Shown one piece after another: positions 1 through 46,727 of a DNA stretch of 64,000 nucleotides. This DNA is from Ignavibacteria bacterium. Lineage in GTDB: Bacteria; Bacteroidota; Ignavibacteria; UBA10030; SZUA-254. The position numbers and the translations under genes are program-made. The notes below the pieces were generated by a model. It made no database searches and had not been told where the DNA came from. It worked only from the letters and a program-made list of their open reading frames with translations. How positions within the stretch are numbered: position 1 is the first letter of the stretch; every line of letters begins with the position of its first letter. The stretch spans positions 33,899 to 97,898 of the forward strand of contig JANNFI010000046.1 of assembly GCA_031379665.1 (NCBI GenBank), read 5' to 3'.

Positions 1-273
1 ATCGCCAGAGATGAACCGCGCGGGATCGTCGGCGGGAATCGTCCGATCGTCGACCGTGATGAGGAGCCACCCCGACGCCACGACCGTCAGCGGTACCAGC
101 ACCGCGGCGAGGGTGTGCCGGGAACGGAAGAAGATCAGCGTGGTGAGCACCGCCAGGAAGAGGAGTGCGGCCGTCACGAACGGAATGGCCGGCGGGAGGG
201 GCGCCAACCAACCGGCAAGGATCCCCGCCGCGAGAAGGAGGGAGAATTTCAACGCCGGTCGATTGGCCATCAC
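1..273 (-). CDS. Partial (N-terminal part only) polytopic membrane protein. The reverse-strand ATG at 271-273 gives MANRPALKFSLLLAAGILAGWLAPLPP...; possibly ComEC-like N-terminus. The gene continues beyond the window start.
   Basis: Manual translation of the reverse strand; hydrophobic helices; it starts 10 nt after the stop of the upstream minus-strand gene. Absent from the ORF track because it is truncated by the window edge. Confidence 0.3.
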   Translation of the reverse strand, partial: MMANRPALKFSLLLAAGILAGWLAPLPPAIPFVTAALLFLAVLTTLIFFRSRHTLAAVLVPLTVVASGWLLITVDDRTIPADDPARFISGD

Positions 274-282
274 TCCCTCAAT

Positions 283-1254
283 TTAAACAGCATAATATTC
301 AAGTATCGCCGGGACGATGTCGGTGAGGTCGCTCACCCGGTGGACCAGCCGATCGTGCCCCCTCCCGGCGGCGACGAATGGAACAGGATTGAGCGTGTGC
401 TGTTTCGTGGAGAGGTCTTCGAAATTGCCGTGGTCGCTCGTCAGGATGAAGGTGTCGCGTGATGGATCCATCCCGTCGACGAACCCGCCGATGAACCGGT
501 CGAGCGTCGAGAGGATCTCGACAGCGTCCTTGCGGGCGCGCCCGTGCCCCGCATGGTCGGTGAGGTAGTACTCGAAGAAAACGAAATCGTGACCGGCGAG
601 AACGCCGAGAGCCACATCCGCCGCCGCCTCGGGACTGATGACGGGGACGTCGGGGTAGCCGAGATTCCCCCAACCCTCCGACGTGAAGTCCGCGGAGAGG
701 GCCTGGCCAGCGTGCAGTTCCGCCGGACCGTTGAGCGTCCTTCCTCCCGCCCTCCACGCAAGCGAAATCGCACCCGTCCGCCCGGGGTGTTTCTCCGCGT
801 GTCCGATGTATTGCCGGGGAAACGCGTTGATGTACATCGGCCGAAGACCTCGTTCGGTGAGGAGCGTGAAAATATTTTTCCGGGAGAGGAGCGTCCGCAG
901 GGCGGAGTGCGGGTAGGGACCGAAATGGCGGCCGAGCATCCGCGCCGCATTCTCGCCGGTGAGGATCGCGGTCTGCCCGGTGCCGCTTTGCGGAAGACCC
1001 CCGATGCCGAGCGTCGCGTCGACAGCGCGGACGGAGGAACGTCCATTGTCGCGACCAGCGCTCCCGAGAGAGGACGTCCCGTTCCCTAATGACGGGATCG
1101 GGCCACCCAGGAGCGCCTCAAAACCGGGTAGGGGGAGTGAAAAAAATGGATTCACAGCGGCGTCCCGCCGGCCGATCCCGACCCCGTCGAGGAAGAGGAA
1201 AAAGATCCTCCCGTGACGGCCGGGGGGGCGCGTGATGGTTCCCGGTGTATTCAT
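283..1254 (-). CDS. Metalloenzyme (alkaline-phosphatase superfamily) protein, cofactor-independent phosphoglycerate mutase / phosphopentomutase-like.
   Basis: N-terminal RIFFLFLDGVGIG and C-terminal FILTSDHGN motifs, typical of the iPGM/phosphopentomutase metalloenzyme domain; 323 aa. Confidence 0.55.
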   Translation of the reverse strand: MNTPGTITRPPGRHGRIFFLFLDGVGIGRRDAAVNPFFSLPLPGFEALLGGPIPSLGNGTSSLGSAGRDNGRSSVRAVDATLGIGGLPQSGTGQTAILTGENAARMLGRHFGPYPHSALRTLLSRKNIFTLLTERGLRPMYINAFPRQYIGHAEKHPGRTGAISLAWRAGGRTLNGPAELHAGQALSADFTSEGWGNLGYPDVPVISPEAAADVALGVLAGHDFVFFEYYLTDHAGHGRARKDAVEILSTLDRFIGGFVDGMDPSRDTFILTSDHGNFEDLSTKQHTLNPVPFVAAGRGHDRLVHRVSDLTDIVPAILEYYAV

Positions 1255-1270
1255 TCCATCGGCCGGAGAC

Positions 1271-1722
<452 letters not shown>

Positions 1723-1726
<4 letters not shown>

Positions 1727-2619
1727 CTCCTCGCCGACACCACCCGTTCGATGCCCGAGAGGTCGCGCACCACCCCCGTTGCGCGGAGGGAACACCCTTG
1801 AAAAATCCGTTCGACCGCCCTCGCCTGGTTGTAGGCGGTCTCGACCATCAGGATGCCCCCTTCAACCAGAAGGACGCCCGCCAGCTCCCCGAGTCGCCTG
1901 AAGAATGAGAGCCCGTCGCCTCCGTCGGTGGTTGCGAGCTCCGGTTCGAAGAGTCGCACCTCGGGGTCGAGACCCGGCATATCGGCTGACGGTATGTAGG
2001 GAGGGTTGGATACGATCGCGTCGAAGGAATCCGTGTGGAACGGCAGCTCGTCCCTGAGAATATCGGCCCGCACCAACGAGATCCTCCCCTCCAGACCGTG
2101 TTCCCGGGCGTTGGTCCGTGCGACATCGAGGGCATCAGCGCTGACGTCGACGCCGACCACGGCCGCCTGCGGGTGGTATCGTGCGATCGCCACGGCGATA
2201 TTGCCGGAGCCAACGCCGACATCCAGGACCCGCACCGGAGATGTGCCCCGACTGCGGCAGTATCCGAGCATCTCCTCCGCGAGGACCTCGGTCTCCTGAC
2301 GCGGTATCAGCACCCGCCGGTCCACGGTCAGGTCGAGGCCCATGAAATTGGCACGGCCGGTGATGAACTGGAGCGGCTCGTGGGTGAGCCGTCGCCTGAT
2401 GAGCCCGACGAAGAGGTCGACCTCGGTCCCGGTCATCATTTTTTCGAATTCGACGTAGAGGCCGATTCGACCGCAACCGAGGAGATGGCACATCAGCAGT
2501 TCCGCGGTGAGCCTGGCTTCGTCGATCCTCCCCTTCCTCAGGACGTCTTCCGCCCAGCGAACCGCCGGGAGAATCGTGGCGGGAGGCGCAAAGGGTCCGA
2601 CAGGTTCATTCGATTCCAT
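1723..2619 (-). CDS. prmC: Release-factor glutamine N5-methyltransferase (HemK/PrmC).
   Basis: NPPYI catalytic motif, [15 protein letters not shown]-binding motif; its stop overlaps the dtd start (ATGA). Confidence 0.85.
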
Positions 2620-2638
2620 CGCGCGGCCTCCGTCGCCC

Positions 2639-4393
2639 TCAGACCGTCCTGCGGAGCAGGACGAGTGTGATGTCGTCCGTCTGAACGCCGGTGACGCTCC
2701 AGCCGGTCACGGCATCCACGATCGACCGTCTGAGTGCGTCCAGCGGCACTGTCCGCGAGTCGCGTACGATCGCGTCGAGCCTGTCCTCGCCGAACTCCTC
2801 CCCCGCGGGGTTCATCGCCTCGGTGACGCCATCGGTGTAGAGGCAGATGGTGTCGCCGTGTTCCAGCGTTACCGTCCCCTGCTCATAGGGGCGCATCGTG
2901 GGCATCACCCCCAGAATCAGGCCTCCGTCGTCGAGCCGTTCGAGGCTCCCGTTGTTGCGGCAGAGGATCGGCGGGTTGTGTCCGGCGTTCACGTAGGTGA
3001 AGCTCCCCGTCCCGGGCTCGAGGATCCCCCAGAAGAAGGTGATGAACCTCCCCTGGGTGGTATTCTGCGTCATCAGGTCGTTGACCCTGCCGGTGAGCTC
3101 GGAGAGGGTCAACCCGAGCGGCACGAGCGCCCTGATCGATGCCTGCAGGCTGGCCATCAGCAGTGATGCCGGCGTGCCTTTGCCCGAGACATCCCCGATG
3201 GCGATGACCCACCTGGTCACACCCAGCGGAATAACGTCGTAGTAATCCCCACCCACCTGCCGGGAGGAGATGTTGACGGCCGAGATCGCGTAGCCGGGGA
3301 GGTCCGGCAGGTCGGCCGGGAGCAACCCTTTCTGGATCTCCTTGGCGATCAGCAGCTCATCCTCCATTTTCTGTTTCTCGAGCGCCTCCCGGAAGAGCCG
3401 GGTGTTCTCGAGAGCGATGACGGCGAGATTGCCGAGGGAGGAGAGGAAATCGAGGTCCGCCTGGGCGTACGGTATGTCGTTCATCCTCCCCCCGACCCCA
3501 AACACACCCTTCAGTTCGTTCTGGGCCCTGAGGGGGATCACCGCCTGGATGCCGAGACCCTCGAGGTGTCGCCGCGTCGCGCGATCGGATGATCGCTCCA
3601 GGGTTTCCACCGTCCGGGACTCCTTCATCCCCATGAGGTAGGGGACGAGGTCCTCAGGTACATCCGCGTCGATCCGTTTGAGCACGTGCACGAACCGTCC
3701 CTCGCGCACGAGGGAGAGAAAGCACTTATGGGCGCCGATCTGGCCCATCACCGAGAACATCAACAACTTCACCATCCGCTCCGGGTCGAGGACCGCGTTC
3801 AGCTCCTTGCTCAACTCAAACAGGGTGTTGAGTTCCTGGATTTTCCGGCTGAGCTTCCTGTTCGCGGCGTCCACATCGGACCAGGCGGTGGCCCTCACGA
3901 TCGAAGTGGCGGCGATGTTCGCAAGGGACATCAGGTACTCTTCCTGTTGCGCGGTGAGCTCCCGCCCAAGCGCGCTCGACGAGAACCCCAGCAGGCCCAC
4001 GATGCGGACCCCCTCCGTCATCGGGATGAGGGTCTGGATCCCGTGTGAGCGAAACGCCCTGACCCAGGGGTATTTCCTCGCGTCGGTGTCCCCGCACCGG
4101 ATGATTCGCCTGGGGATGCGCTTCATTTTCATCGCCGTGCCGACGAGGTCGGGCTTGAGCCCGCGGACGTTCTGGATCCTGAATCCCTCCTCCTCGCTAC
4201 CGAGCAGTACGATGCCGCGCAAGGCCAGGAGTTTGCCCATCACCGTCAGGAGCAGGTGCCCCAGGATGAACGTGAGGTCGGTGGACGAGTTGATGATGGA
4301 GCTGAATTCGAAGAGCGAGCGGAAGTCGAACCGTCGCTCCATCTCCTGGGAAGACGACGACGGAGGCGGGATTGTCGCGGAGGTTCGTTTCAT
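2639..4393 (-). CDS. Soluble GAF-GAF-PP2C (SpoIIE/RsbU-type) serine phosphatase.
   Basis: Two GAF-like regions followed by a PP2C signature (GDVSGKG, GGDYYD, YTDGVTEA). Confidence 0.8.
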   Translation of the reverse strand: MKRTSATIPPPSSSSQEMERRFDFRSLFEFSSIINSSTDLTFILGHLLLTVMGKLLALRGIVLLGSEEEGFRIQNVRGLKPDLVGTAMKMKRIPRRIIRCGDTDARKYPWVRAFRSHGIQTLIPMTEGVRIVGLLGFSSSALGRELTAQQEEYLMSLANIAATSIVRATAWSDVDAANRKLSRKIQELNTLFELSKELNAVLDPERMVKLLMFSVMGQIGAHKCFLSLVREGRFVHVLKRIDADVPEDLVPYLMGMKESRTVETLERSSDRATRRHLEGLGIQAVIPLRAQNELKGVFGVGGRMNDIPYAQADLDFLSSLGNLAVIALENTRLFREALEKQKMEDELLIAKEIQKGLLPADLPDLPGYAISAVNISSRQVGGDYYDVIPLGVTRWVIAIGDVSGKGTPASLLMASLQASIRALVPLGLTLSELTGRVNDLMTQNTTQGRFITFFWGILEPGTGSFTYVNAGHNPPILCRNNGSLERLDDGGLILGVMPTMRPYEQGTVTLEHGDTICLYTDGVTEAMNPAGEEFGEDRLDAIVRDSRTVPLDALRRSIVDAVTGWSVTGVQTDDITLVLLRRTV

Positions 4394-4411
4394 CGTCCGG
4401 GGGGGGCTGTC

Positions 4412-4852
4412 TCAGCCCTTGGGGAGCAGTTTCACGAGGTGCACCTCGTATGTCGCGCCGTCCCCCTGGCGGTAGTACACCCTGTCCATCAGTGAACGAA
4501 TGAGGTGCAGGCCGAGGCCTCCCTTCCGATAGTGCGCGAGGTACTCCTTCATGTCGGGCGCCTTGATGTTGTCCGGATCGAACGATTTTCCGTCGTGCGT
4601 GATTACGATCTCGATTTCCTTCTCTCCCGGTATGACCCTGATGTCGATCTCCCGGTCGGGGGAATTGGCATAGGCGTGCTTGATCACGTTCGTGCAGGCC
4701 TCGTCGCAGCAGAGGGCGATCTTGTGCACCGCGTCGTCGCGGAACCCGAGATCGCGGGCGCAAGCGGAGACGAAGTCCCTCACCTCCCGGAGCCGGTCGG
4801 TGCGGCTCTTGATCTTCAGGTGGGTGCTGGCCGGTTTTTGTCTGGCGTTCAT
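4412..4852 (-). CDS. RsbW/SpoIIAB-like anti-sigma factor serine kinase (HATPase_c_2).
   Basis: ALCCDEACTNVIKHAY and GGLGLHLIRSLMD motifs. Start taken at the internal Met (MNARQ...); the track ORF extends further 5'. Confidence 0.7.
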   Translation of the reverse strand: MNARQKPASTHLKIKSRTDRLREVRDFVSACARDLGFRDDAVHKIALCCDEACTNVIKHAYANSPDREIDIRVIPGEKEIEIVITHDGKSFDPDNIKAPDMKEYLAHYRKGGLGLHLIRSLMDRVYYRQGDGATYEVHLVKLLPKG

Positions 4853-4880
4853 GCGTTCGCCTGGATGATCGATGATCGTC

Positions 4881-5237
4881 CTACTTCGCGCCGGCCTGGA
4901 ACTTGCGAATCGCCTCGGCTTCGTCGTTCGTGATTTCATACAAAAGCGGGAATCCGAGGAGGTCGAAGACGTTGAAGACCTTCGGGGACATGTTCGACAG
5001 CTTGATATCCCCCTTGTTCCTCCTGACGTCTTCGATGTACGCCATAAAAACCCCGAGGCCGGCGCTGCTGATGTAGGTCAGATCGGCGCAGTTCACCACG
5101 ATCCGGTACCTGTTCCTGTCGATCAGCGACTGGAACGATTTTTCCAGTTCGGGCGCGGTGTGGGCGTCGAGGTACCCCTTCAGGTCGAGGACGTTCACGT
5201 CGTTCGTTTCCCGCAGTTCAATTTTAAATGAGCTCAT
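4881..5237 (-). CDS. STAS-domain anti-sigma factor antagonist (RsbV/SpoIIAA-like).
   Basis: LDLKGYLD...LTYISSAGLGVF STAS core with a conserved phosphorylatable Ser context; start at MSSFKIEL. Confidence 0.8.
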   Translation of the reverse strand: MSSFKIELRETNDVNVLDLKGYLDAHTAPELEKSFQSLIDRNRYRIVVNCADLTYISSAGLGVFMAYIEDVRRNKGDIKLSNMSPKVFNVFDLLGFPLLYEITNDEAEAIRKFQAGAK

Positions 5238-5267
5238 ACCGGGTCCTTTGGTTGATGGTGCCATGTA

Positions 5268-7407
5268 TCAGGTTGCGTTGCCGTCTATTTTTTTCCATTT
5301 CAGGACGACGATCGTGAGGTCGTCCTCGGGGGGCCTGTGGTGCATGTGGATGTCGACGGCGCGCACGATGTCATCGCGCATGTCGAGGGCGCTCTTTCGT
5401 CCCGATCGGGCGATGACCTCCTCGAGTCGCTCATATCCGAACTCCTCACCGCCCTCGGGCCGGGCCTCGGTGATGCCGTCGGTGTAGTACACGGCGATGT
5501 CGCCGTCGCAGAGCCGGATTTCGTCCTCGGTGATCGTGCGGGCAAAGAATTCCTTCGAACCCATCCCCACGCCGAGGCCCGTCGGCTTGATGAGCCGCGT
5601 CCCGTCCTTGGAGAGGAGGATCATCGGGCAGTGGCCGGCGCGGGCCACGCGCATCGTTCCCGTCCTGATGTTGATGATCGAGTAGATCAGGCTGATGAAG
5701 GTCCGTTTGTCCATCGTCCCGAGAAGCGCGGCATGGGCCTGGGAGAGGAACTCCCTCGGGGACCGGTGGAGCTTGCTGAGCGCCTGGAAGATCCCCTTCA
5801 TCTCTGCCATGAACAACGCGGCCGAAACGCCCTTCCCTGAGACGTCGCCGACGATCACCCCCAGGTGGTCGTCGTCGAGCATCGTGAAATCGTAGTAATC
5901 GCCCCCTACTTCGAAAGCCGGGGTGGACAGCGCCTCGATCTCGATCTCCGGGAGGGACGGCAGCTCCTGCGGCAGGAGTTTCCGCTGCATTTCCTGCGCG
6001 AGGAGCATCTCGCGCATCAACCTTTCGCGCTCGAGCGATTTTTCGATGAGCCTCGAATTTTCCAGCGCGATGGTCACCTGGTCGGCGAAGGCCGAGATGA
6101 CGTCGGCGTCCTCGCGGTCGAACCCGAAATCCATGGTTTTCGTCGCGTAGAGCACGCCGATCACGTCGTCGTGCGACACCAGGGGCACGATCACCATCGA
6201 GTGGATCTTCTTGCCGATGTTCCTGATGTGCCTGGTCCGCCCATCCTCCCTCACCTGGTCGATCACCACCGGCTTCCGGCCGTCGATCACGAGGCGCCTC
6301 AGTGAGCCGTCGTTCATCCCGGTGATCTCCTCGATCTCCCCGATCGAGATGTTCTGCAACGCCACAGTCCGGAACGCCGGCGGCGCGGGGGCCGCCCGGT
6401 CGTGTCCGCGGGCCTGGGCCGCGTCCCGGGGGATCACCTCGAGCCACGCGCTCTCCGCCTCGCAAACCTCGAGGGTCATCTTCGTCACCAGGTCGACCAG
6501 CTCGTTGAAGTCGAAGACCCTCGTCACCAGTTTGCCGAGGTTGTGGAGCGAGAGGACCTCGATGCTCTTCCGGTCGTATGCCTCGGCTGTCGGCAGGTGG
6601 AACAGCGTGCTGACGAAGGTCATACCGAAATAGATCGCCGCGAACAGGTCCATGGCCGCCACCGCGGTGGAGAGCTGGCGGGAGTAGTAGGTGAGCGACT
6701 GCGCGATCACCGAACTGTCATCAACGGATGCCACGTAGATCGGAACGTAGAGCGCGAAGAGGATGAAGCTGAACGCCATCGTGAGCAGCTTCTCCCGCTT
6801 CGACAGGTAGACGATCCAGGAGAGCCGGAAGGAATTCAGGAGGATCGCCCCGACGGTGAGGCCGAAGCTAACGGCGATGAGCAGATCCGATTCGAACGGC
6901 CGGTAGGGAACTGTGATGGCGATGGTCGTCAGCAGGAGGACGAGGAAGAACCTGAAGTTCCGCTTGGTCTCCTTCTTCCGCTTGGACATGATGATGTCGC
7001 GCAGCGTGAGGAGGATGAAGAGCGACGTCGTCCCGAAGACCACGGCGTAGATGTTCGCGAACACCACCGATTCGAACCCCTCGGGGAGGGCGACTTCGTT
7101 CTTGATTACAAAGCCCGTCGAGGACACGCCGTACAGCGCCAACCCCGCCAGCCCCACCACGAGCGTCAGCACCAGCGCGAACCCGAGCTTCCGCACGACG
7201 TTCTGGTCGCGGCGCCAGACGGTCTCGATGTAAAAATAGAGTGAGAGGAAGGCCCCGACGACGAGCAGCGCCTGCAGGATCGTGAGGGCGCCAAGCTCGA
7301 CGTCCAGCTTCGAGGCCACGACGTCGACCACGAACTTCGCGATGAACAGGAACCCGCTCACCGAGAGGAGGAGTGCCTTCTTCAGCCTGATTCTACGATC
7401 GGTCATG
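5268..7407 (-). CDS. Membrane-anchored (multi-TM N-terminal sensor) GAF-PP2C serine phosphatase, RsbU-like.
   Basis: About 300 aa of hydrophobic helices, then a GAF-like region, then PP2C motifs (GGDYYD, GDVSGKG, YYTDGITEA). Start at Met 7405-7407; the track ORF is N-terminally over-extended. Confidence 0.75.
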
Positions 7408-7417
7408 GCGGCCCGCG

Positions 7418-8764
7418 TCAGAGTTTGACCCTGATCCAGCTGGTAGACCTGAATTTCAGGAAGTTCATCGTCGAGTAGGCGACAATGTACACCGGGAGGG
7501 CGAGCCACGAGCCCGTTACCCCCCATCCCAGCACGATACCGAAGACGTACGTCAGGGGAAGGAAGATGATCCAGTGGGTCAGGATTTCCACCCACATCAC
7601 ATAGACTGTCGCGCCGCCGGCTTGCAGGGCGTTCGCAAAAATGATGCCCGACGAGTAGAACACCTGGGCGATCCCGGCGATCCGGAGGATCGGTCTGGCG
7701 ACGTCGATGACTTCAGCGTTTGTCGTGATGATGATCAGGATGAGGTCCGGCACGAGGCAGAAGATCAGGCCAACCGCGAGGGTGAAGATTGTCCCCAGCT
7801 TCGCCGTCTCGAAGCCGTACGCGTGGGCGCCCTCCACGTCGCCCTTTCCGAGCGACTGACCGACCAGCGTCTGCGCGGCGATGCCGAAACCGAACGACGG
7901 CATCAGGGATATGAAAATCGCCGATGTCACGACGTTGGTGGCCGCCTGTTCCACCGTGCCGATCCAGCCGGTGATTGCCACGAACGAGAGGAACCCAAGA
8001 AGGATCAGGATGTTCTGGAGCGACACAGGAATGGATATTTTGACTATCTGGGCGATCGTCTCCCTCGAGATGCGGAAATGAGAGTAATACTGATATTTCT
8101 TTCGATAATCCCCGAGAAATGTTACACCGACGAAAAAAAGCCATCCCAGGGCCATACTGAGCGAATATCCGAGCCCGGCGCCCGCGAGCTCCATCCGGGG
8201 AAAGCCGAAGGCCCCGAAGATGAGCACATAATTAAACAGGATGTTGAAGACGTTGACGATGATGGCCGAGAACATGAAAATCTTCGTATGGCCGATCCCG
8301 AAGAAGAAGCCACGGTATGACACGATCAGGAGGAAAAACGGGAGTCCGATGAACTGGTACTTCATATACTCCGACCCTGCGACCGCGACGGCCTGGTCGG
8401 CAGAGAAAAAATTGAGGATGTCGTAGGAAAACATGAAACCGAGGATGCCGGACACGATGCCCAGGAAGAGGCAAACGACGAGCGAATTGTTGAGGACTTC
8501 TCCGACCCCCCTGTGGTCTCCCTCTCCGTGCCGCCGGGCGACGTACACGTGGGTGCCGGTGCTCAGGCTCGAAAAGAGGCTTGCGATCGCCCAGGAACCG
8601 AGGAACCCCAGGCCCATCGCCGCGAGCTGGACTTCGGTATTCTCGAGCCGCCCGACCATGGCTGTATTCACCACGGAGACGACCATCTGTGACGAGAGGC
8701 CGGCGATCGCGGGAGTCGCGATCTGGAGAATGTCCCGGACCAGATTTTTCCGCAGTGTCAGCAT
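7418..8764 (-). CDS. MATE family efflux transporter.
   Basis: 12-TM profile, 448 aa, typical MATE N-terminal LxxIAxPxI and repeated halves. Confidence 0.85.
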   Translation of the reverse strand: MLTLRKNLVRDILQIATPAIAGLSSQMVVSVVNTAMVGRLENTEVQLAAMGLGFLGSWAIASLFSSLSTGTHVYVARRHGEGDHRGVGEVLNNSLVVCLFLGIVSGILGFMFSYDILNFFSADQAVAVAGSEYMKYQFIGLPFFLLIVSYRGFFFGIGHTKIFMFSAIIVNVFNILFNYVLIFGAFGFPRMELAGAGLGYSLSMALGWLFFVGVTFLGDYRKKYQYYSHFRISRETIAQIVKISIPVSLQNILILLGFLSFVAITGWIGTVEQAATNVVTSAIFISLMPSFGFGIAAQTLVGQSLGKGDVEGAHAYGFETAKLGTIFTLAVGLIFCLVPDLILIIITTNAEVIDVARPILRIAGIAQVFYSSGIIFANALQAGGATVYVMWVEILTHWIIFLPLTYVFGIVLGWGVTGSWLALPVYIVAYSTMNFLKFRSTSWIRVKL

Positions 8765-8819
8765 TGTTCGGTCCGGGTCGCCCGCGGGTCAGGCTTCCGG
8801 GTCGCTGCGACGGCCGGGT

Positions 8820-9524
8820 CTAGAGCGAATACCGTGTGATCAGCCTGTCGGCCTCCCGCGCGTATGTCGATTTCGGGTACTCTTCCTTAAGCTTTTTCAT
8901 CAGTTTCACGGCCTCCTCCCGCTCTCCGGCCGCGCCGTAACACCTCGCCGCGGAGTTGAGGTGTTCCGGGGCCGACACACCGTCAGGATAGATCCTGGCC
9001 GCGTCTTCGTAGAGGTCCGCCGCTTCGGAGTATTGCTTCATCGCCTCGTGACAGGCCGCCTCTCCGGCCCTGGCGCCGGCGTCGAGGAGTTTATCCCCGG
9101 CGGAATAGCTGTCGTACTGATCGAGAGCGTTCGCATAGTCACCGAGGCGATAGTAGGCGCCCCCCAGGTAATACCGTGCAAGGTCGCCGGCGTCGGTACC
9201 GCCATAATTGTCCACGATCGACTTCAGCCCCATCAGCCCCTGCTCGGGCCTCCCGTCGATCGCGACCCTCACGGTCCCCTGATCGGCCGGGGCGCCGTCC
9301 ATCACGGTAATGACGCGTGAGAGTTGAGCGCCGGCCATCTCGTTGTTGGAGCGCCGGTTGTTGATGAAGATGACCGTCGCCGCGATGACGATGACCATCG
9401 CCGTCAGGGCGTAGTTGACATATTTCTTGTTATCGTAGTAAAATCCGGTGGTCTTGACGTACGTCGTCAGGAGTGTGTCCTGCTTGATCTCTTTCTTGGC
9501 GAGCTTCTTTTTCGGTGTCAACAC
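8820..9524 (-). CDS. Membrane-anchored tetratricopeptide-repeat protein (YfgM-like).
   Basis: Single N-terminal TM (ALTAMVIVIAATVIFI) followed by TPR-like helical repeats (YYLGGAYYRLGDYANAL...). Confidence 0.55.
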   Translation of the reverse strand: MLTPKKKLAKKEIKQDTLLTTYVKTTGFYYDNKKYVNYALTAMVIVIAATVIFINNRRSNNEMAGAQLSRVITVMDGAPADQGTVRVAIDGRPEQGLMGLKSIVDNYGGTDAGDLARYYLGGAYYRLGDYANALDQYDSYSAGDKLLDAGARAGEAACHEAMKQYSEAADLYEDAARIYPDGVSAPEHLNSAARCYGAAGEREEAVKLMKKLKEEYPKSTYAREADRLITRYSL

Positions 9525-9551
9525 GGCGATTTTTCCTTTAATTGGTTGAAG

Positions 9552-9625
9552 TGCGCCCGGCGCGATTCGAACGCGCGACCTACAGCTCCGGAGGCTGTCG
9601 CTCTATCCATCTGAGCTACGGGCGC
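9552..9625 (-). tRNA. tRNA-Arg (anticodon CCG).
   Basis: Manual cloverleaf fold of the reverse complement: acceptor GCGCCCG/CGGGCGC, anticodon stem ACAGC/GCTGT, loop CTCCGGA, T-loop TTCGAAT; no encoded CCA. Confidence 0.85.
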
Positions 9626-9674
9626 AGTTTTTTATGGAAATAGACATGTAATTTACACTTTTTCATCCCTATTA

Positions 9675-10325
9675 TCAAGGTCTGCCGGAGATCGCCCTGG
9701 TCAATTCGAGCGCAGAAACGGCCCCCTCCCTCACGATGGTGAGTGTACCGTCCGAGACATCCGCGATCGTCGAAGGCGCGGATCTCCGTACTCCTCCATC
9801 CACGGCCAGGTCCACTTCCCCCCCGAACTCCCGCAGGAGCGAAGGATAATCGCCTTCCGGCTGAACGCCGGACCGGTTGGCTGAAGTCGACACCAGCGGC
9901 GAGGCGCAACGGGTCGAAAGCCGCCGACAGAATTCGTCCGCCGGTAACCGGACACCCAGCTTCCCTGTTCCGGCCGTCAGGAGACCCTCGACTCCCGGCG
10001 CTGCCCTCAGGATGAGAGTCAGGGGGCCGGGCCAGAAGATATCCATCAGGTGACGAGCGAGGGGCGAGACCCCGTCGGACATTCCGATCGCCATCTCCAC
10101 AGAATCCACCAGGACGAGACTGGGTTTCGATTCCGGTTTCCCCTTGATGGCATAGATCCTTCTCACGGCGGCCACGTCTCCGGCAAGGCAACCGAATCCG
10201 TAGAGCGTGTCCGTCGGATAGAGGAGCACCCCGCCTTCGCCGAGAACGACTGCTGCCCGGTGTACCGCGGAATTCAAGTCTCCAGGGGCGCCGATCCGGA
10301 TCTGCTCGCAAACCCGCTTTTCCAT
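9675..10325 (-). CDS. tsaC: L-threonylcarbamoyladenylate synthase (YrdC/TsaC family).
   Basis: LLYPTDTLYGFG motif and SANRSG motif characteristic of YrdC/Sua5. Confidence 0.8.
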   Translation of the reverse strand: MEKRVCEQIRIGAPGDLNSAVHRAAVVLGEGGVLLYPTDTLYGFGCLAGDVAAVRRIYAIKGKPESKPSLVLVDSVEMAIGMSDGVSPLARHLMDIFWPGPLTLILRAAPGVEGLLTAGTGKLGVRLPADEFCRRLSTRCASPLVSTSANRSGVQPEGDYPSLLREFGGEVDLAVDGGVRRSAPSTIADVSDGTLTIVREGAVSALELTRAISGRP

Positions 10326-10329
10326 CCCT

Positions 10330-11373
10330 TCACTCCCCCCCGGTCATCGAGGCAACCTCGTCCAGGACCATCTGAGGGGTGATCCGTAGCATGCACTCAA
10401 AGGTCCCGATGGGGCAACGGTCACCGCCGTGGATGCTGCAGGGGCGGCACGACAGACCGCCGGTCTCCATCACGGTGTCGCGCACTCCGATCGGACCGAA
10501 ACCGAACCCAGGGATCGTGGCCCCGAAGATGGCGAGAACCGGCGTACCCACCGCCGTCGCGAGATGGAGCGGCGCACTGTCGTTGCAGATGAGAAGCACC
10601 GACTGACGGATCAGTTCGGCGGATCCGCGAACGTCGAACCTGCCGCAGGCGTTGAGGATGCCGGCGCCCCCGACCGCCCCCCCGGCGATGCTCCCGCACA
10701 ATGCCAGATCCTCTGGCCCGCCGATGAGCACGACCAGGTAGCCGAGTTTCACCAACCCGTCCGCCACTGCCGCGTATCGCTCCCCCGGCCACCGCTTCGT
10801 GTTCCAGAGGGTACCGGGGGCGATCGCGACGATCCTTCGCCCCCGCGCGCCGCCGCTCCCGGAGAGAAATCCGGCGACCGCGGTTTTCGACGCTTCTCCT
10901 GGCGCGATCAGGGGGGCTACCCTTGCGGAACGCCCGAGTCCGATCCCTTCAAGCAACCGGAGGTTCCTGTCGATCTCGTGAATGTCTTTTTCATATGACA
11001 CGGTCCGGGTGAACAGCATCCTCCCGGCGCTGGCATCGAAACCGACACGGACGGGGATCCCGGCCGCCCTGGCGAGGAGCGCGCTGCGTAACGAGCGGTG
11101 CGGAATGATGGCACAGCCGTAGCCGCCCCGCTTCACCTCCCGGACGATCCGGAGGAAGCCCCCCACTCCGGAGTCGGCTCCACGCTTGTCGTAGACGAGC
11201 GTCCGACGGAGGTCCGGGTGCCCGGTGATTGCTCCGGCTGTCCGGGGAACCACCATCATATCGATCCTCAGGTCCGGTTCGTTTCTTCGAAGGACCTGTG
11301 CCACCGGCAGCGTGAGGATCACATCCCCGAGGAACGCCGTCTGGACGATCAGGACGGGGTCAGGGACCGTCAT
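10330..11373 (-). CDS. Glycosyltransferase family 9 (LPS heptosyltransferase-like).
   Basis: N-terminal ILIVQTAFLGDVILTLPVAQVLR and C-terminal LICNDSAPLHLATAVGTPVLAIFG motifs, typical of RfaF/RfaC GT9; start at the second Met. Confidence 0.7.
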   Translation of the reverse strand: MTVPDPVLIVQTAFLGDVILTLPVAQVLRRNEPDLRIDMMVVPRTAGAITGHPDLRRTLVYDKRGADSGVGGFLRIVREVKRGGYGCAIIPHRSLRSALLARAAGIPVRVGFDASAGRMLFTRTVSYEKDIHEIDRNLRLLEGIGLGRSARVAPLIAPGEASKTAVAGFLSGSGGARGRRIVAIAPGTLWNTKRWPGERYAAVADGLVKLGYLVVLIGGPEDLALCGSIAGGAVGGAGILNACGRFDVRGSAELIRQSVLLICNDSAPLHLATAVGTPVLAIFGATIPGFGFGPIGVRDTVMETGGLSCRPCSIHGGDRCPIGTFECMLRITPQMVLDEVASMTGGE

Positions 11374-12283
11374 GACCGCTCCCCTCAACACCCTCCGGCG
11401 GAACGATGTGCTTCCAGCGCCGGTGCATCCAGAGCCAGTGATCCGGGTGCAACCGCACGTACCGTTCGAGGACGTTGACGTGACGACGCGTCAGCTCTCT
11501 CACGTTTTCATCGGTGGCGCCAACCAGATCGGCGCCGGGTACCTGCTCGAGGACGAAATCGTATGTGTAGTCGGGTCGGCGGATGACGAATCCCATCATC
11601 ACCGGCACCCCGGCCTTCAGGGCGAACGCCGCCGGACCACGGAAGGTGGCCACTTCCCGGCCAAAAAATGGGATGAAATCGCTCTCCCTCGACGCGCTCT
11701 GGTCGGGGGCAAGCGCCACGACGCCCCCGCTCTTCAGGGTCGTCAGGCACTCCCGGATCGCCCGGTCCATCGGCACCACATTGTTTCCGAAACTACATCG
11801 CAGCGAAGTGACGACCCGGTCGACCAGCCTGTTCGACTGGGTCTTTACGATGACGAGGTAGGGAACGCCCGACAGGGCCGCGCTCCCGACACCCGAGAGC
11901 TCCCAGTTTCCGAAATGTCCGGTGAGGTAAATGAGCGCTCCTCCGCGGGCGATCGCCTCGAAGTGCGGGCGGTTTTCGTTGAAATGCAGGAGGGTCTCCA
12001 ACCCGGGTCGATCGAGTTTTGAAAAACAGAGAAACTCCGACATCGCAATTCCGAAGTTCTCGAAGGCCCCCTTCGCAATGGTTTTCAGGCCGGCCTCGGT
12101 CGACCCGGGGAAGGCGTGCCGCAGGTTGTCCAGCGTGATCGCCCTGCGAGCGGGCATCACGCGGTAGAAGGCGCCCCCCAGGAACCGCCCGGTCCGCTGG
12201 ATCCATGGGAAGGGCATCAGGAGCAGAGCGCCCCTGAATAGCCAGAAGAAGAAATACTCGACACGGTGTGAGATCCGGTTCAC
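11360..12283 (-). CDS. Lipid A biosynthesis late (LpxL/HtrB-type) acyltransferase.
   Basis: LPLAT family pattern (HFGNWE catalytic motif, 307 aa); overlaps the heptosyltransferase gene, suggesting an LPS operon. Confidence 0.7.
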   Translation of the reverse strand: MNRISHRVEYFFFWLFRGALLLMPFPWIQRTGRFLGGAFYRVMPARRAITLDNLRHAFPGSTEAGLKTIAKGAFENFGIAMSEFLCFSKLDRPGLETLLHFNENRPHFEAIARGGALIYLTGHFGNWELSGVGSAALSGVPYLVIVKTQSNRLVDRVVTSLRCSFGNNVVPMDRAIRECLTTLKSGGVVALAPDQSASRESDFIPFFGREVATFRGPAAFALKAGVPVMMGFVIRRPDYTYDFVLEQVPGADLVGATDENVRELTRRHVNVLERYVRLHPDHWLWMHRRWKHIVPPEGVEGSGHDGP

Positions 12284-13671
12284 CGTATCGCTGCCTCCGA
12301 TTCGAACCAGTTTTCGTTCCGCAATTCGTCCAGGTGCGTGGAATGGACGAGGCGGTACGAGCCGAAACCGAGATTGTCGACGAAAATGAAGACGGCTCCC
12401 GCCTGGAGCGATCGATATTCCCAGATCTCGTATGGATGGGCCTCGGTTTCGCTGGGGTGACGTTCGACGTCATCCGGTTCGCCGTAGACGACCGACACCC
12501 TCCCCCTGTCTGAGAGCCATCCCGCCCGGTTCCTCTCCGCGTATTTTCCGTCTGCCTCGCGGATCCTGGAGAGGTACATCTCCCGGGCTCCCGCCGGACC
12601 CGCAACCGGCTCAGATTCCCTCCCGGACCAGAACGTCCTGAGGAAATTTCGCTTCGCGCCGAGGTCGGCGAGCTTCTCGATCTGAGCGCGTTCCGGTTCC
12701 GTGGTCAGGTACCTGATCTTGCGGATTTCGTCGTCGGCCTCCGGTTCGGTCATGAAGGCAAAGATCCTATCCTGCCGATCCGCCGCGGAAGGAGCCGCCT
12801 GTTCCCCGATACCGGGGTTATAGACGAAGAATTTCTTCTCCGAGCTCGCAAGCAGGCGTGGCGGGACCGAGGAGGAGTCGAGCAGTGAGATGAAGAAACG
12901 GTAACTCCCCCCGGGGAGCGAGGCGATGTTCATCGACCCGTATTCCGCGCTCGACTGGAAGGTCCTGGGTTTGCTCTTCGCCTGGGAGACTACCTCCGTA
13001 CCGTGGTTATCGAGGATGGCCGCACGTAGCACAACGTTCGGCCCCGGCGTCAGGTTCAAGTTGTACACTTCAGCGTAAAAATAAACGACCGGCAGCCCCT
13101 GCCCGAACAGCCTGGATGGGTTCGGGATGACCTCAAGCGTGTTCCGGTAGAACGGCGAGCTCTTGTCGCCGGACGGCGTGATCCGGGAGCAGAGTTCGAT
13201 GTCGCTGAGCCCCTCCACCTGCGGCGCGAAACCCCGTACACTCACGGGCATCGACACCGTGTCGGCCCTCGAGAGATCGAGCGAGTCAGCGCCCACCAGG
13301 GACAGCCGGTATTCGCCCCGGCGGAGGGTCAGGGTTTCGAAGCTGAGGATATTCCTGGGTGTCGCGAACTCCGCGCTGTCGCGGATCACCCTCGGAAGGA
13401 CCCACTGCCTCGAATCCACGACCCCGGTGGAGTCGACTACCTGAAGGCTCATCGTCAACGCGCCGATGAATCCGGTCGAGTCCCCCCTGTACGTGAGGCT
13501 GGCCTCGGAGACCCCGTAATACACCTCAAGGTGCGTCAACGAGTCAGGGCCAGCGAACCGGGCGATGTCGACGGCGATTCTGAAGGCGGAACGCACAGGG
13601 ACGGTCTGCGATTGCGCAACCCCAGCGAGGGAGAGAAGGGCGATCAGGACGGATGTTTTTGGAGCGGGCAC
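12280..13671 (-). CDS. GWxTD-domain secreted protein.
   Basis: Signal peptide plus a C-terminal RAGWLSDRGRVSVVYGEPD motif matching the GWxTD domain signature. Confidence 0.65.
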   Translation of the reverse strand: MPAPKTSVLIALLSLAGVAQSQTVPVRSAFRIAVDIARFAGPDSLTHLEVYYGVSEASLTYRGDSTGFIGALTMSLQVVDSTGVVDSRQWVLPRVIRDSAEFATPRNILSFETLTLRRGEYRLSLVGADSLDLSRADTVSMPVSVRGFAPQVEGLSDIELCSRITPSGDKSSPFYRNTLEVIPNPSRLFGQGLPVVYFYAEVYNLNLTPGPNVVLRAAILDNHGTEVVSQAKSKPRTFQSSAEYGSMNIASLPGGSYRFFISLLDSSSVPPRLLASSEKKFFVYNPGIGEQAAPSAADRQDRIFAFMTEPEADDEIRKIRYLTTEPERAQIEKLADLGAKRNFLRTFWSGRESEPVAGPAGAREMYLSRIREADGKYAERNRAGWLSDRGRVSVVYGEPDDVERHPSETEAHPYEIWEYRSLQAGAVFIFVDNLGFGSYRLVHSTHLDELRNENWFESEAAIR

Positions 13672-32396: not shown

Positions 32397-34976
32397 TTAA
32401 CGTTCAAGCCCGAAGTCGATGTTGTTGACCTGGTCTCCGTCGGGCAGCGCCCTGATTTCGACCGTCCGGGAGATCTCGGTCTGCCGGTAACCGAGTTGAG
32501 CCACCTGACCGGCGTTCAGGGATACGATGTAGCGCCCCGGTTGAAGGGCGAGGAATTCGAATTCCCCGGTCGAAAACGATGTCGCCGTCCTCGGGAACCC
32601 TTCGCGGTCGCCCGACTCGGCCGCTATGGTGATCGTCAGGTTTTCCGCACTGACCATCTGGTCGCCGACGGCGTAGGTCACCCGTCCGCGGATGATGCCG
32701 CCAACGATGATCGGGACTTCAATCTGACGAAAGCGGTTCGGTTCCGAGATCGCCGAAAACGTGCTGAACTTCGGTACCCAGAGCGGGTTGTCGAGGAACT
32801 GCGGTTCGAGCGTCATGAAATACTCCTCGAACGGCAGCGTGTGTTCGAGCAGGAAGCCGCCCGGTGAGTAGCGCACGTAGCTGTTGCCGAAGAGGCTCGA
32901 CGTCTTCAGGCGGCCCTTGGTGATGTATTCCTCGCCCGGGTCGTGGATGTCATTCGCGTTCGCGTCGATGAAGGGCTGGACGACGATGCCGCCGAACCCG
33001 ACTCTGCTCGCCAGGTAATCGAAGTAGAAATCACCCGTTTCCGGCGAGTAGCCCACGGAGCCGCTTACCGACTGCGACGAGCGTAATCCGCCCTCCTCGC
33101 TCGCACCGATGACGGCGCGGACAAGGGCGTATGGGAAATAAAGGACGAACTGGAGCCCGGCGAATGTGTTGTTCGTATAGAAGCTCCGTTCGTAGAAGAG
33201 CTGCAACCAGAAACCGCGGGAGAAGCGCCGGCTGAACTCGAAGCGGGCGTCCCTGAAGCCGCTGTCAAAATGATAGTAGCGCGTGCTCGCCCTGAAGAGG
33301 AACCCTCCCGGGGCCCGGATGCCGAGCGACGCGAAGGTATACGCCTGTTCACGCGTGCCGATGTTGTTGATGTTGTCCCACGTGCGCCGGTGGGAGATCC
33401 TCGGCGAAAAAATTCCGACCTGGCCGCCGAAAGCGATCAATGCCGACCGTTGCCGCCCGGAGGAGAGCAGGGATTGCCTTCCGGCGAGGTCGAGGCTGAG
33501 CCGCCGGTTTCCCGAGCGGACGGGGATGCTGACCGAGGCTGCCGATTCATTCTTGAGATTCCTCGGGTTGTAGAACGGGTTGCGCGCATACCACGAGTAA
33601 CTGGCCGAAGCGCTGGCTGATGAGGGCCAGCTCACCGAGAGGCCCGTCCGCGAGTACGCCGACGGGGCCAGGACGAAATCGCCGGTGAGGATGTCGGTGA
33701 GCCTCGACGTCGCGGTGATCATCGGGTGATACCGCTTCGAAGTCTTCTCGTAGTAATCCACCCCTGCGCCGATGGTCAATCGCGAATTGACGCCCCACTG
33801 TACAACACCGTTGCCGTATCCCTCGTCGAATCGCTGCCGGTAGATGCCCCCGGCAAGGCTGTATTCCACGGTCCCCGGCGGTATCATCTCCGGAGGAACG
33901 ATGATCCGGTACTGGGTGGTCCGCTCGAGCCCGAAGGCGTCGTACGACCTGACGTCGTACATCGAGACGCCGTACGTGACGATCGACGGGAAGGAGTATT
34001 CGTTGACCGCCGACTTGGCCTGGTAGTCGACGAGGGCGCCGCCGTAGTACAGATCGGCTGCGCCGCCTTCCGGGAGCGGACCGCTGATGTTGTCGGAAGT
34101 GAAGTAGAACCGGCGGGGCGCCGGCCGGTTCGTGATTTCTGCGCCGAAGACGGACGAGGGCATCAGCCCCGTGGTAAGGATGTCCCCGATGGTGATCTGG
34201 CGGACGTACGAATTATTGAGGAATGCCCACCGCAGGCGGCTAAGGACGTCATCCCACGTGAGGGCCCGACCAAACGTGCCGAACACCCTCGTGTCCATAT
34301 CGCCCCCCAGGATGTGGTTCCCCACCTGAACCGCGAAGGTGCGGCGCGGCTGGCCGAACTGCGTGAGCTGGGACGTGAGGGAGTAACCAATCCGTCCGAA
34401 ACCGAACGGGATGAAGGACCGGTCGATGGTGACTTCGGGATCGGGGAGCTGGCCCAGGGTGCGGCGTCGTTTTCTGGCTAACTCCCTGTCTCGCTCCTGG
34501 TAGACGGGCAGACGGTGCTTCGTTTTCAGTGAGACCTCAAGCCTACGGGGGTTATACCTGAGCGCGATGCCGAAGATCTCGTTGTACCGGTCCTCGAAGA
34601 GGAAGAGGTCGTCGGTGCCGCGGAGCAGGTCGTCCTGCGAGAGAGCGATGGATCGCCCTTCGATGATGGCGACGAGAGCAGTGCCATCGATCGAATAGGG
34701 ATTGTCGCTCCGGAGGAAGGCGCCTTCCGCCCTGCCGGTCGGGAGGTCGAGCACGACGGGAATCTTGACGAAATCGAAGAGGCTGCGGATCGGGATGTAT
34801 GCGCGTTCACCACGCAGCATGATCTGGAGATCCACCCTGAGACCGCCCTGCAGATCGAGCCCGACCGGGACGAGCATCGTGGAATCGCCGGGAGCATCGG
34901 TCTGCGCGACAACGCCTCCGGCCAGCGACAGCACCGTCGTAATCAGGAGAAAAATCCTCAGGACTCTGGCACTCAT
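32397..34976 (-). CDS. Large outer-membrane protein, candidate fimbrial usher-like pore (859 aa).
   Basis: Signal peptide; long Gly/Tyr/Ser/Arg-rich beta-strand-like middle region; C-terminal small beta-sandwich-like domain (PGRYIVSLNAG). Sits immediately downstream of a PapD-like chaperone gene. No usher motifs could be verified by eye. Confidence 0.4.
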   Translation of the reverse strand: MSARVLRIFLLITTVLSLAGGVVAQTDAPGDSTMLVPVGLDLQGGLRVDLQIMLRGERAYIPIRSLFDFVKIPVVLDLPTGRAEGAFLRSDNPYSIDGTALVAIIEGRSIALSQDDLLRGTDDLFLFEDRYNEIFGIALRYNPRRLEVSLKTKHRLPVYQERDRELARKRRRTLGQLPDPEVTIDRSFIPFGFGRIGYSLTSQLTQFGQPRRTFAVQVGNHILGGDMDTRVFGTFGRALTWDDVLSRLRWAFLNNSYVRQITIGDILTTGLMPSSVFGAEITNRPAPRRFYFTSDNISGPLPEGGAADLYYGGALVDYQAKSAVNEYSFPSIVTYGVSMYDVRSYDAFGLERTTQYRIIVPPEMIPPGTVEYSLAGGIYRQRFDEGYGNGVVQWGVNSRLTIGAGVDYYEKTSKRYHPMITATSRLTDILTGDFVLAPSAYSRTGLSVSWPSSASASASYSWYARNPFYNPRNLKNESAASVSIPVRSGNRRLSLDLAGRQSLLSSGRQRSALIAFGGQVGIFSPRISHRRTWDNINNIGTREQAYTFASLGIRAPGGFLFRASTRYYHFDSGFRDARFEFSRRFSRGFWLQLFYERSFYTNNTFAGLQFVLYFPYALVRAVIGASEEGGLRSSQSVSGSVGYSPETGDFYFDYLASRVGFGGIVVQPFIDANANDIHDPGEEYITKGRLKTSSLFGNSYVRYSPGGFLLEHTLPFEEYFMTLEPQFLDNPLWVPKFSTFSAISEPNRFRQIEVPIIVGGIIRGRVTYAVGDQMVSAENLTITIAAESGDREGFPRTATSFSTGEFEFLALQPGRYIVSLNAGQVAQLGYRQTEISRTVEIRALPDGDQVNNIDFGLER

Positions 34977-46634: not shown

Positions 46635-46727
46635 TTGCAGCGGGACCGTACCGACGATGAGTAGTGCAAGGGGAGAAACGTTGTACAATGTACGGAAAAC
46701 GGGGACTGATTTCAAGCGTTCAGGGCA

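Follow-up and report, generated by a model that had tools for sequence, protein, structure and literature searches.

What does a bacterial partner-switching module control when no sigma factor is encoded beside it? This question is raised by a four-gene cluster in a 64,000-nucleotide stretch (hereafter the window) of contig JANNFI010000046.1 from an Ignavibacteria bacterium, for which the original prediction had described an orphan module of two PP2C-type sensor phosphatases, a STAS antagonist and an RsbW-like kinase. Because the expected domains are present, the key residues are largely intact, the genes form a conserved unit and they evolve under purifying selection, we consider it probable (about 0.85) that the cluster encodes a core phospho-switch of the RsbU/RsbV/RsbW partner-switching type. 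We propose more tentatively (about 0.4) that its output is a target other than a dedicated sigma factor, encoded elsewhere. The four genes, together with the domains of the transmembrane (TM) phosphatase, lie as follows.

5268-7406, minus strand: TM phosphatase, 712 aa, with an 8-TM domain, long helix, GAF domain, coiled linker and PP2C domain (SpoIIE/RsbU family)
6597-7406, minus strand: N-terminal 8-TM input domain of the TM phosphatase, aa 1-270
6060-6506, minus strand: GAF domain of the TM phosphatase, aa ~301-449 (Pfam GAF/GAF_2/GAF_3)
5292-5876, minus strand: PP2C catalytic domain of the TM phosphatase, aa ~511-705 (Pfam SpoIIE)
4881-5237, minus strand: single-domain STAS protein of the anti-sigma-factor-antagonist type, 118 aa; Ser58 codon at 5064-5066
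4412-4852, minus strand: RsbW/SpoIIAB-like GHKL serine kinase, 146 aa; His86 codon at 4595-4597
2639-4393, minus strand: soluble (cytoplasmic) sensor phosphatase, 584 aa, with GAF, GAF and PP2C domains

All four co-directional genes carry the domains that had been named for them, as judged by Pfam and NCBIfam, and are separated by gaps of 18-30 bp. The span of 2639-7407 originally given for the module captures the extent of the cluster but is one base off at its upper end, where the first base of the start codon is 7406. Maximal open reading frames (ORFs) cover 5268-7595 (775 aa) for the TM phosphatase, 4881-5264 for the STAS protein and 4412-4939 for the kinase; the true starts are placed at 7406, 5237 and 4852 by homolog alignment and by the public gene calls for an identical contig of 6.2 kb. 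The module genes are under strong purifying selection, with dN/dS values of 0.08 for the TM phosphatase, 0.07 for the STAS protein, 0.12 for the kinase and 0.075 for the soluble phosphatase in comparison with a relative at 91-92% identity (locus L084); the flanking gene prmC gave 0.14 in the same comparison.

The STAS protein matches the Pfam STAS family (E 1e-17) and passes the cutoff of the NCBIfam anti-sigma factor antagonist model TIGR00377 (76.7 bits against 53.45). Its best relative of solved structure is SpoIIAA (E 7e-13), with RsbV also recovered, and its Ser58 aligns opposite the phosphorylated Ser58 of SpoIIAA. These matches bear out the antagonist assignment, and Ser58 is the predicted phospho-acceptor, apparently intact. 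In a comparative set of 80 related loci, drawn from a scan of one genome per species, the acceptor motif YISSAGLG is kept in 75-76 of the 76 loci compared.

An RsbW-like kinase with conserved N, G1 and G2 boxes had been anticipated, and this description stands for the N and G2 boxes and for the relationship to RsbW but not for the G1 box. The protein matches Pfam HATPase_c_2 (E 4e-28), and its best solved relative is Bacillus subtilis RsbW (6m36, E 8e-16), followed by SpoIIAB (E 6e-6). It misses the cutoffs of the RsbW equivalogs NF003144 and TIGR01924 (76.1 versus 145 bits, E 2e-21, and 72.5 versus 155 bits, respectively) and of the SpoIIAB equivalog (45 versus 135 bits). Both the N box (aa 50-61, DEACTNVIKHAY, with E51, N55 and H59) and the G2 box (aa 111-117, GGLGLHL, containing GGLG) are intact, align with those of RsbW and are conserved family-wide across about 76 loci. 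In the G1 box (aa 85-92, THDGKSFD), the canonical Asp of the D-x-G motif is replaced by His86, giving T-H-D-G. When the window kinase was aligned with its 120 nearest homologs (121 sequences), this position was occupied by His in 74, Asp in 46 and Asn in one, while across 78 module kinases it is Asp in 69, the more distant of them retaining the canonical residue. As His is common to 74 of the 121 aligned kinases, His86 appears to be a clade-conserved variant and not a sign of decay. The G1 Asp is the adenine-contacting residue in the GHKL fold, and a paper on the RsbV-RsbW structure makes no statement on its role; the substitution may alter nucleotide binding or use.

The reading of the first phosphatase as a multi-TM GAF-PP2C sensor is well supported, as both hydropathy and an AlphaFold2 model (predicted local distance difference test score, pLDDT, 87; predicted template modelling score 0.78) give the same eight helices, followed in the model by a long helix, and Pfam identifies the GAF and SpoIIE domains downstream. 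By hydropathy, the helices span residues 8-269 in an N-in/C-in arrangement in which every loop is at most 17 aa, with positive charge at the N-terminus and in the cytoplasmic loops. The GAF domain (Pfam GAF_2, E 7e-12) occupies residues 363-513 of the 775-aa ORF, corresponding to 300-450 of the 712-aa protein, and the PP2C domain (Pfam SpoIIE, E 2e-42) covers profile positions 1-192 of 192, with the motifs GGDYYD, GDVSGKG, YTDG and DDLT all present. The metal-binding residues D503, D506, D521, D643, D695 and D696 are the same in all 18 homologs compared, and two further motifs are near-invariant, namely NSFRLSWIVYLxKREK and a juxtamembrane HLPTAEA(F/Y)DRK that follows the 8-TM domain. Rv1364c, RssB and SiaA are the best solved relatives. 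More than 120 full-length homologs were found at 45-100% identity, those with names being proteins of Bacteroidota or Ignavibacteria metagenome-assembled genomes. The 8-TM domain itself has neither a Pfam model nor a convincing solved structural relative, and 1.84 billion representative proteins, scanned in full, yielded just 201 clusters matching it, of which the shorter are fragment-like and the longer are mostly 660-770 aa. Because these longer matches share the TM-GAF-PP2C architecture, the 8-TM domain is a dedicated input domain, almost devoid of periplasmic loops.

The second phosphatase had been read as a soluble GAF-GAF-PP2C protein, and this arrangement holds on structural evidence although its first GAF domain is weak by sequence and below threshold (E 0.0055). 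Pfam detects SpoIIE (E 3e-50) and GAF_3 (E 1e-13), and the AlphaFold2 model (pLDDT 86.6) contains two alpha/beta GAF-like units at aa 13-147 and 204-310 with a helix between them, a long helix at 311-357 and a PP2C domain at 368-582. Foldseek matches the N-terminal half to the tandem GAF domains of PDE2A and PDE5A over 357-393 columns, and the PP2C domain to Rv1364c, RssB, SiaA, SpoIIE and RsbX. Residues D383, D386, D401, D521, D573 and D574 do not vary among 52 homologs, and the GGDYYD, GDVSGKG, TDG and DD motifs are invariant in both phosphatase families.

In the mechanism that we propose for this switch, the GHKL kinase would phosphorylate the STAS protein on Ser58, and either of the two SpoIIE/RsbU-family PP2C phosphatases would remove the phosphate. 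The TM phosphatase, with its 8-helix membrane domain and single GAF, would read an intramembrane or envelope cue and the soluble tandem-GAF phosphatase a small-molecule cue, such that two cues converge on a single STAS protein. The long helix that links sensor to catalytic domain in each phosphatase would provide control of the coiled-coil-linker type, and long helical linkers between sensor and PPM domains have been proposed as a general control element with precedent in RsbZ and RsbU (PMC12143880). Unphosphorylated STAS protein would then bind the kinase and alter what the kinase or the STAS protein itself can bind, the target being reached either by the unphosphorylated STAS protein or by the released kinase. 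Phosphotransfer, the convergence of both phosphatases on this STAS protein, the signals and the output are all steps that we infer. The notion of two distinct sensory inputs, one at the membrane and one through cytoplasmic GAF domains, fits the domain anatomy and parallels RsbU/RsbP and RsbZ.

How widely this arrangement is kept was assessed across the 80 loci, which come from Ignavibacteria-like Bacteroidota, Rhodothermales, Cytophagales (Algoriphagus, Roseivirga, Marinoscillum and Cyclobacteriaceae), Calditrichota and a few other lineages. The TM phosphatase, STAS and kinase genes are directly consecutive in that order in 73 of the 76 loci with sufficient room, and one further locus reflects an ORF-calling artefact. 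Median gaps are 19 bp between the TM phosphatase and STAS genes, -1 bp between the STAS and kinase genes, and 2 bp between the kinase and soluble phosphatase genes (38 loci for the last), and gene order is retained from 47% to 92% identity. The soluble GAF-PP2C gene follows the kinase in 34 of 69 loci, those of the Ignavibacteria-like and Calditrichota lineages, and wherever it is present it lies directly after the kinase; the second phosphatase is a lineage-specific addition. All-against-all clustering of approximately 1,300 neighbouring genes revealed nothing but the triad to be conserved across lineages. The upstream TPR and MATE genes occur in the clade of the window only (11 and 7 loci, respectively), the Cytophagales modules have IMP dehydrogenase upstream and a SurA-like peptidyl-prolyl isomerase downstream, and the downstream neighbour, which is prmC in the window, differs in the other lineages.

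Further variations on the module were seen among these loci. A third phosphatase-like gene lies farther downstream in 22 loci, typically encoding about 850 aa in the Ignavibacteriales; its representative in L019 (14480-17062) encodes 860 aa, in which GAF and PP2C domains were recognised along with a weak match to PDZ near the N-terminus, and such a gene would add a third input to the module. The Rhodothermales locus L041 carries a separate partner-switching set (14-2116), made up of a 423-aa PP2C protein, a kinase and a STAS protein, some 8 kb upstream of the main one, which shows that these genomes can have more than one copy of such a module.

We then asked whether a sigma factor accompanies the module, as its absence was central to the original prediction. 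Sequences of Escherichia coli RpoE and B. subtilis SigB and SigF served as phmmer probes against every ORF of at least 60 aa, both in the window and across 80+ related loci. None of the three probes matched anything in the 64-kb window, the SigB and SigF probes having no positive control; the RpoE probe recovered extracytoplasmic function (ECF) sigma factors in other loci, of which two were checked and both were confirmed by Pfam. Turned on the window, a hidden Markov model (HMM) built from the recovered ECF sigmas likewise drew no match there, even with the threshold relaxed to E<=10, and Pfam scans of the larger window genes yielded no sigma factor, the genes identified being type IX secretion system (T9SS) cargo, transporters, lipopolysaccharide genes and a GvpL/F-like protein. 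A single STAS ORF and a single HATPase_c_2 ORF occur in the window, with no further STAS or kinase gene, no RsbR/RsbS STAS proteins and no RsbT kinase of the stressosome type. Downstream of the module the window extends for another 2.6 kb, and beyond that point we relied on the fully syntenic L084. The next 10 kb of this relative past prmC, dtd and a metalloenzyme gene encode ComEC, methylmalonyl-CoA mutase, GroES/GroEL, an unannotated gene and a peptidase, and no sigma factor is annotated there. The claim that no sigma-factor gene is adjacent is accordingly sustained within the window and, as judged from this relative, just outside it. More broadly, 59 of the 80 loci contain no sigma-like ORF within the available flanks, up to 10 kb per side.

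A sigma factor does lie beside the module in one order. The TM phosphatase gene of 17 Ignavibacteriales loci has a gene for an RpoE-like ECF sigma upstream of it on the same strand, within 3.5 kb in 16 of them and about 2 kb from the orthologous module, giving the order sigma, membrane protein, TM phosphatase, STAS, kinase, PP2C, PP2C (for example, sigma and membrane protein at 7993-9936 in L019 and 7419-9577 in L033). This adjacency is confined to the Ignavibacteriales. The gene that follows the sigma encodes a single-pass membrane protein and overlaps the sigma gene by 4 bp in several loci. In Ignavibacteriaceae-type loci, its N-terminus is of the LSAYLDGELS type and matches Pfam zf-HC2 (E 5e-6 to 5e-4), a segment that we assign as a predicted class-I anti-sigma domain, while in Melioribacter-type loci the gene has no room for such a domain; at least half of the sigma-bearing loci thus pair the sigma with its own class-I anti-sigma. 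The gap from the membrane-protein gene to the TM phosphatase gene is 11-53 bp in seven loci and 105-345 bp in the others. A second single-domain STAS gene with the acceptor motif FMNSSGLG lies near the module in 21 loci, usually divergent from the ECF sigma (7498-7845 in L019, 6919-7260 in L033), and in L015 (6617-6955) it occurs without any sigma. The window contains no counterpart of this second STAS gene, and HMMs of the ECF sigma and its membrane partner found nothing there. The adjacent ECF sigma was considered as the missing target and downgraded in view of the zf-HC2 anti-sigma domain in the following gene of Ignavibacteriaceae-type loci, and it is at most a weak lead to an unlinked sigma in the genome of the window.

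Several observations weigh against our interpretation, and they are best considered together with the alternatives that they suggest. Because the adenine-contacting G1 Asp is His in the clade, kinase activity is less certain than the remaining boxes would imply. Taken further, the kinase of this clade would be a pseudokinase that does not bind ATP, and the module would operate independently of phosphorylation. H-x-G in place of D-x-G in the window kinase and in 73 of the 120 homologs nearest to it speaks for this, as does retention of Asp by most of the wider family (69 of 78), yet the proposal is improbable: the N-box Glu, Asn and His and the G2 GGLG are intact, conservation of the His itself suggests a functional variant, and the invariance of the Ser58 motif and of the catalytic Asp residues of both phosphatases, under strong purifying selection, would be pointless without phosphorylation. 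It is very improbable that the four genes are mere neighbours, for instance with the second phosphatase acting on another substrate. That gene is missing from about half of the loci, and operon boundaries could not be set, but wherever it occurs it comes straight after the kinase gene, at a median distance of 2 bp, the gene order persists from 47% to 92% identity, and the window offers no other STAS or kinase gene.

The other difficulties concern the output. The closest characterised relatives of the kinase, RsbW and SpoIIAB, are true anti-sigmas; no candidate non-sigma target emerged, the neighbours being lineage-specific (MATE and TPR here, a SurA-like peptidyl-prolyl isomerase in Cytophagales); and an unlinked sigma is possible, as the analysis covered some 74 kb of the genome or its close relative. 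Chlamydia RsbW has been reported to act on the unlinked sigma-66 (PMC4552016). A canonical switch is therefore a possibility, if a doubtful one, in which the kinase would be an anti-sigma for a sigma encoded elsewhere (primary, sigma-28-like or other) that unphosphorylated STAS protein would release. It draws on this precedent, on the small part of the genome covered, on the RsbW and SpoIIAB matches of the kinase (E 8e-16 to the RsbW structure, E 2e-21 in NCBIfam) and on the passing of the anti-sigma-antagonist superfamily cutoff by the STAS protein. Against it, a sigma is conserved beside the triad in just one lineage, the RsbW and SpoIIAB cutoffs are widely missed (76 versus 145 and 45 versus 135 bits), and the triad is conserved in Cytophagales genera, where to our knowledge sigma-B/F-type sigmas are not expected. 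Non-flagellated Bacteroidota, so far as we know, generally lack group-3 sigmas. A more specific version, in which the module controls the RpoE-like ECF sigma that is adjacent in Ignavibacteriales and has relocated in the lineage of the window, we regard as quite improbable. The upstream, same-strand position of this sigma in 17 loci, the short gaps to the TM phosphatase in seven, the divergent second STAS gene and the Melioribacter-type loci that leave no room for an anti-sigma domain would all suit such a role. However, adjacency within a single order could be inherited synteny, gaps elsewhere reach 105-345 bp, the Ignavibacteriaceae-type sigma has its own zf-HC2 anti-sigma, and HMMs of sigma and partner detect neither in the window. 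In addition, the ECF classification paper describes no control of ECF sigmas of the RsbW/STAS type (PMC7826278).

On balance, we slightly favour a non-sigma target over an unlinked sigma in general and an ECF sigma in particular, because the triad is conserved without a conserved sigma neighbour, because at least half of the loci that bear the ECF sigma also encode an anti-sigma for it, and because ECF sigmas lack the sigma-3 domain of group-3 sigmas that SpoIIAB-type anti-sigmas grip. Non-sigma outputs are also documented: STAS switches with non-sigma or unknown outputs include SypA, BtrV, RbaV, HmpV and SiaC (PMC8256260, PMC9239204), which adds to the reasons for this preference. The suggestion that the module has either a non-sigma output or a distant sigma is supported by these results, whereas its description as an orphan needs qualification: no sigma is nearby, but PP2C/kinase/STAS clusters without one are common and a recognised category (PMC8256260, PMC9239204).

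Comparison with known systems places the module within this family without making it an ortholog of any characterised member. Judged by sequence, it combines several features of a partner switch (a STAS acceptor Ser, PP2C metal ligands and clustering of the genes) with a GHKL kinase whose G1 box is non-canonical, and it lacks a linked sigma. As in the sigma-B switch of B. subtilis (RsbU, RsbP, RsbV, RsbW), one STAS protein and one GHKL kinase are joined by two PP2C phosphatases with different sensors, which in that switch act on a common phospho-Ser; the best solved relatives of the kinase and STAS protein include RsbW and RsbV. In contrast to that switch, the cluster contains no sigB-like gene, RsbR/S/T stressosome, RsbQ or RsbX, its sensors are an 8-TM domain and GAF domains in place of the RsbU N-domain or PAS, and its kinase falls below the RsbW equivalog cutoff and has His for the G1 Asp. 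The soluble phosphatase shares the architecture of Clostridioides difficile RsbZ, a tandem-GAF PPM phosphatase of the sigma-B pathway, with tandem GAF domains, helical linker and PPM domain (PMC12143880; AlphaFold2, Foldseek); unlike RsbZ, which is co-encoded with sigma-B, it has no linked sigma and is accompanied by a second, membrane-bound phosphatase. The SpoIIE/SpoIIAA/SpoIIAB system offers a polytopic-membrane PP2C that dephosphorylates the STAS substrate of a small GHKL kinase, and SpoIIAA is the best solved match of the STAS protein, but the TM domain of SpoIIE is unrelated by sequence (23-30 versus 491 bits against the SpoIIE equivalog TIGR02865), and the present module has no sigma-F and carries an inserted GAF domain.

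The Rsb system of Chlamydia (RsbU, RsbV1/RsbV2, RsbW) is likewise Gram-negative, with a membrane PP2C sensor and no dedicated sigma in the cluster (PMC4552016, PMC11619594). Its two STAS proteins are mirrored in the Ignavibacteriales relatives of the module. The likeness of the sensors is at the level of architecture. Chlamydia RsbU senses through a periplasmic domain, whereas the module has periplasmic loops of at most 17 aa and uses GAF domains. SypE/SypA, BtrU/V/W, RbaU/V/W, HmpU/V/W and SiaA/B/C/D share the trio of PP2C, kinase and STAS protein with non-sigma or unknown output (PMC8256260, PMC9239204), and the SiaA PP2C domain is a structural match to the module phosphatases. Those switches differ in that no output gene (diguanylate cyclase, type III secretion system or syp locus) lies beside the module, and the SiaA equivalog NF038263 scores 22-25 versus 700 bits. 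Because the RsbW, SpoIIAB, SpoIIE and SiaA equivalog cutoffs are all widely missed, we conclude that the module is not an ortholog of a characterised system. We found no experimental work in the literature on partner switching in Bacteroidota and no paper on this family there, nor anything specific on an Ignavibacteria partner switch or on RsbW/STAS control of ECF sigmas.

Partner switching is a major and under-studied mode of signalling outside Firmicutes and Actinobacteria. The architecture and logic of this module are those that the field already expects, making it fairly ordinary, and it provides a small, self-contained case of two sensor phosphatases that would act on a single STAS protein, together with an unannotated membrane sensor domain. 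Its most noteworthy features are that dedicated 8-TM sensor domain and the conserved G1-box His of the kinase. Since the cassette reaches from Ignavibacteria to Cytophagales, cultured genera among them (Algoriphagus, Roseivirga and Marinoscillum), the output of a switch without a sigma is testable in tractable organisms. A bolder view, which we consider unlikely, is of an uncharacterised pathway common to Bacteroidota and Calditrichota that would combine a dedicated 8-TM intramembrane sensor with no known relative, a non-sigma output and, in the clade of the window, a kinase with His for the G1 Asp and possibly altered nucleotide use, the last point being speculative.

The module is embedded in a dense series of genes, all on the minus strand, that extends over window positions 1-12,300. 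Its flanks, named originally as a MATE pump and prmC, were identified as such by Pfam and NCBIfam.

7418-8764, minus strand: MATE efflux transporter, 11 bp upstream of the module (Pfam MatE, E 3e-48; TIGR00797, 236 bits)
1723-2619, minus strand: prmC, release-factor glutamine methyltransferase, 19 bp downstream of the module (TIGR03534, 240 bits, above cutoff)
8820-9524: TPR protein, upstream of the MATE gene

The intergenic gaps from the MATE gene through the module to prmC are 11, 30, 28, 18 and 19 bp, and prmC is followed by the D-Tyr-tRNA deacylase gene dtd and by a metalloenzyme-family protein. A promoter and terminator scan of positions 1-10500 performed no better than on shuffled sequence; terminator-like sites were no commoner than chance, and operon limits could therefore not be set. 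The MATE gene is a possible operon partner solely in the clade of the window and stands outside the conserved module, and prmC is a flank outside it. Either gene was considered as the output and rejected, their adjacency being restricted to this clade.

Elsewhere in the window, four ORFs of 359-1103 aa (32397-34976, 42328-43407, 43404-46715 and 61638-63665) drew no match from Pfam at E<=1e-4; the GC fractions of the last, 0.86 at first and 0.64 at third codon positions, set it apart from the genes around it, and it may be a spurious ORF. A 501-aa protein at 57700-59205 matches GvpL/GvpF in its C-terminal half (E 4e-13), and no other gas-vesicle genes were noticed nearby. A long minus-strand run at 13837-56741 encodes large secreted proteins, several with BNR/sortilin-like propellers, and at least ten of them bear type IX C-terminal sorting domains (Por_Secre_tail, CHU_C, FlgD_ig), which fits a Bacteroidota origin.

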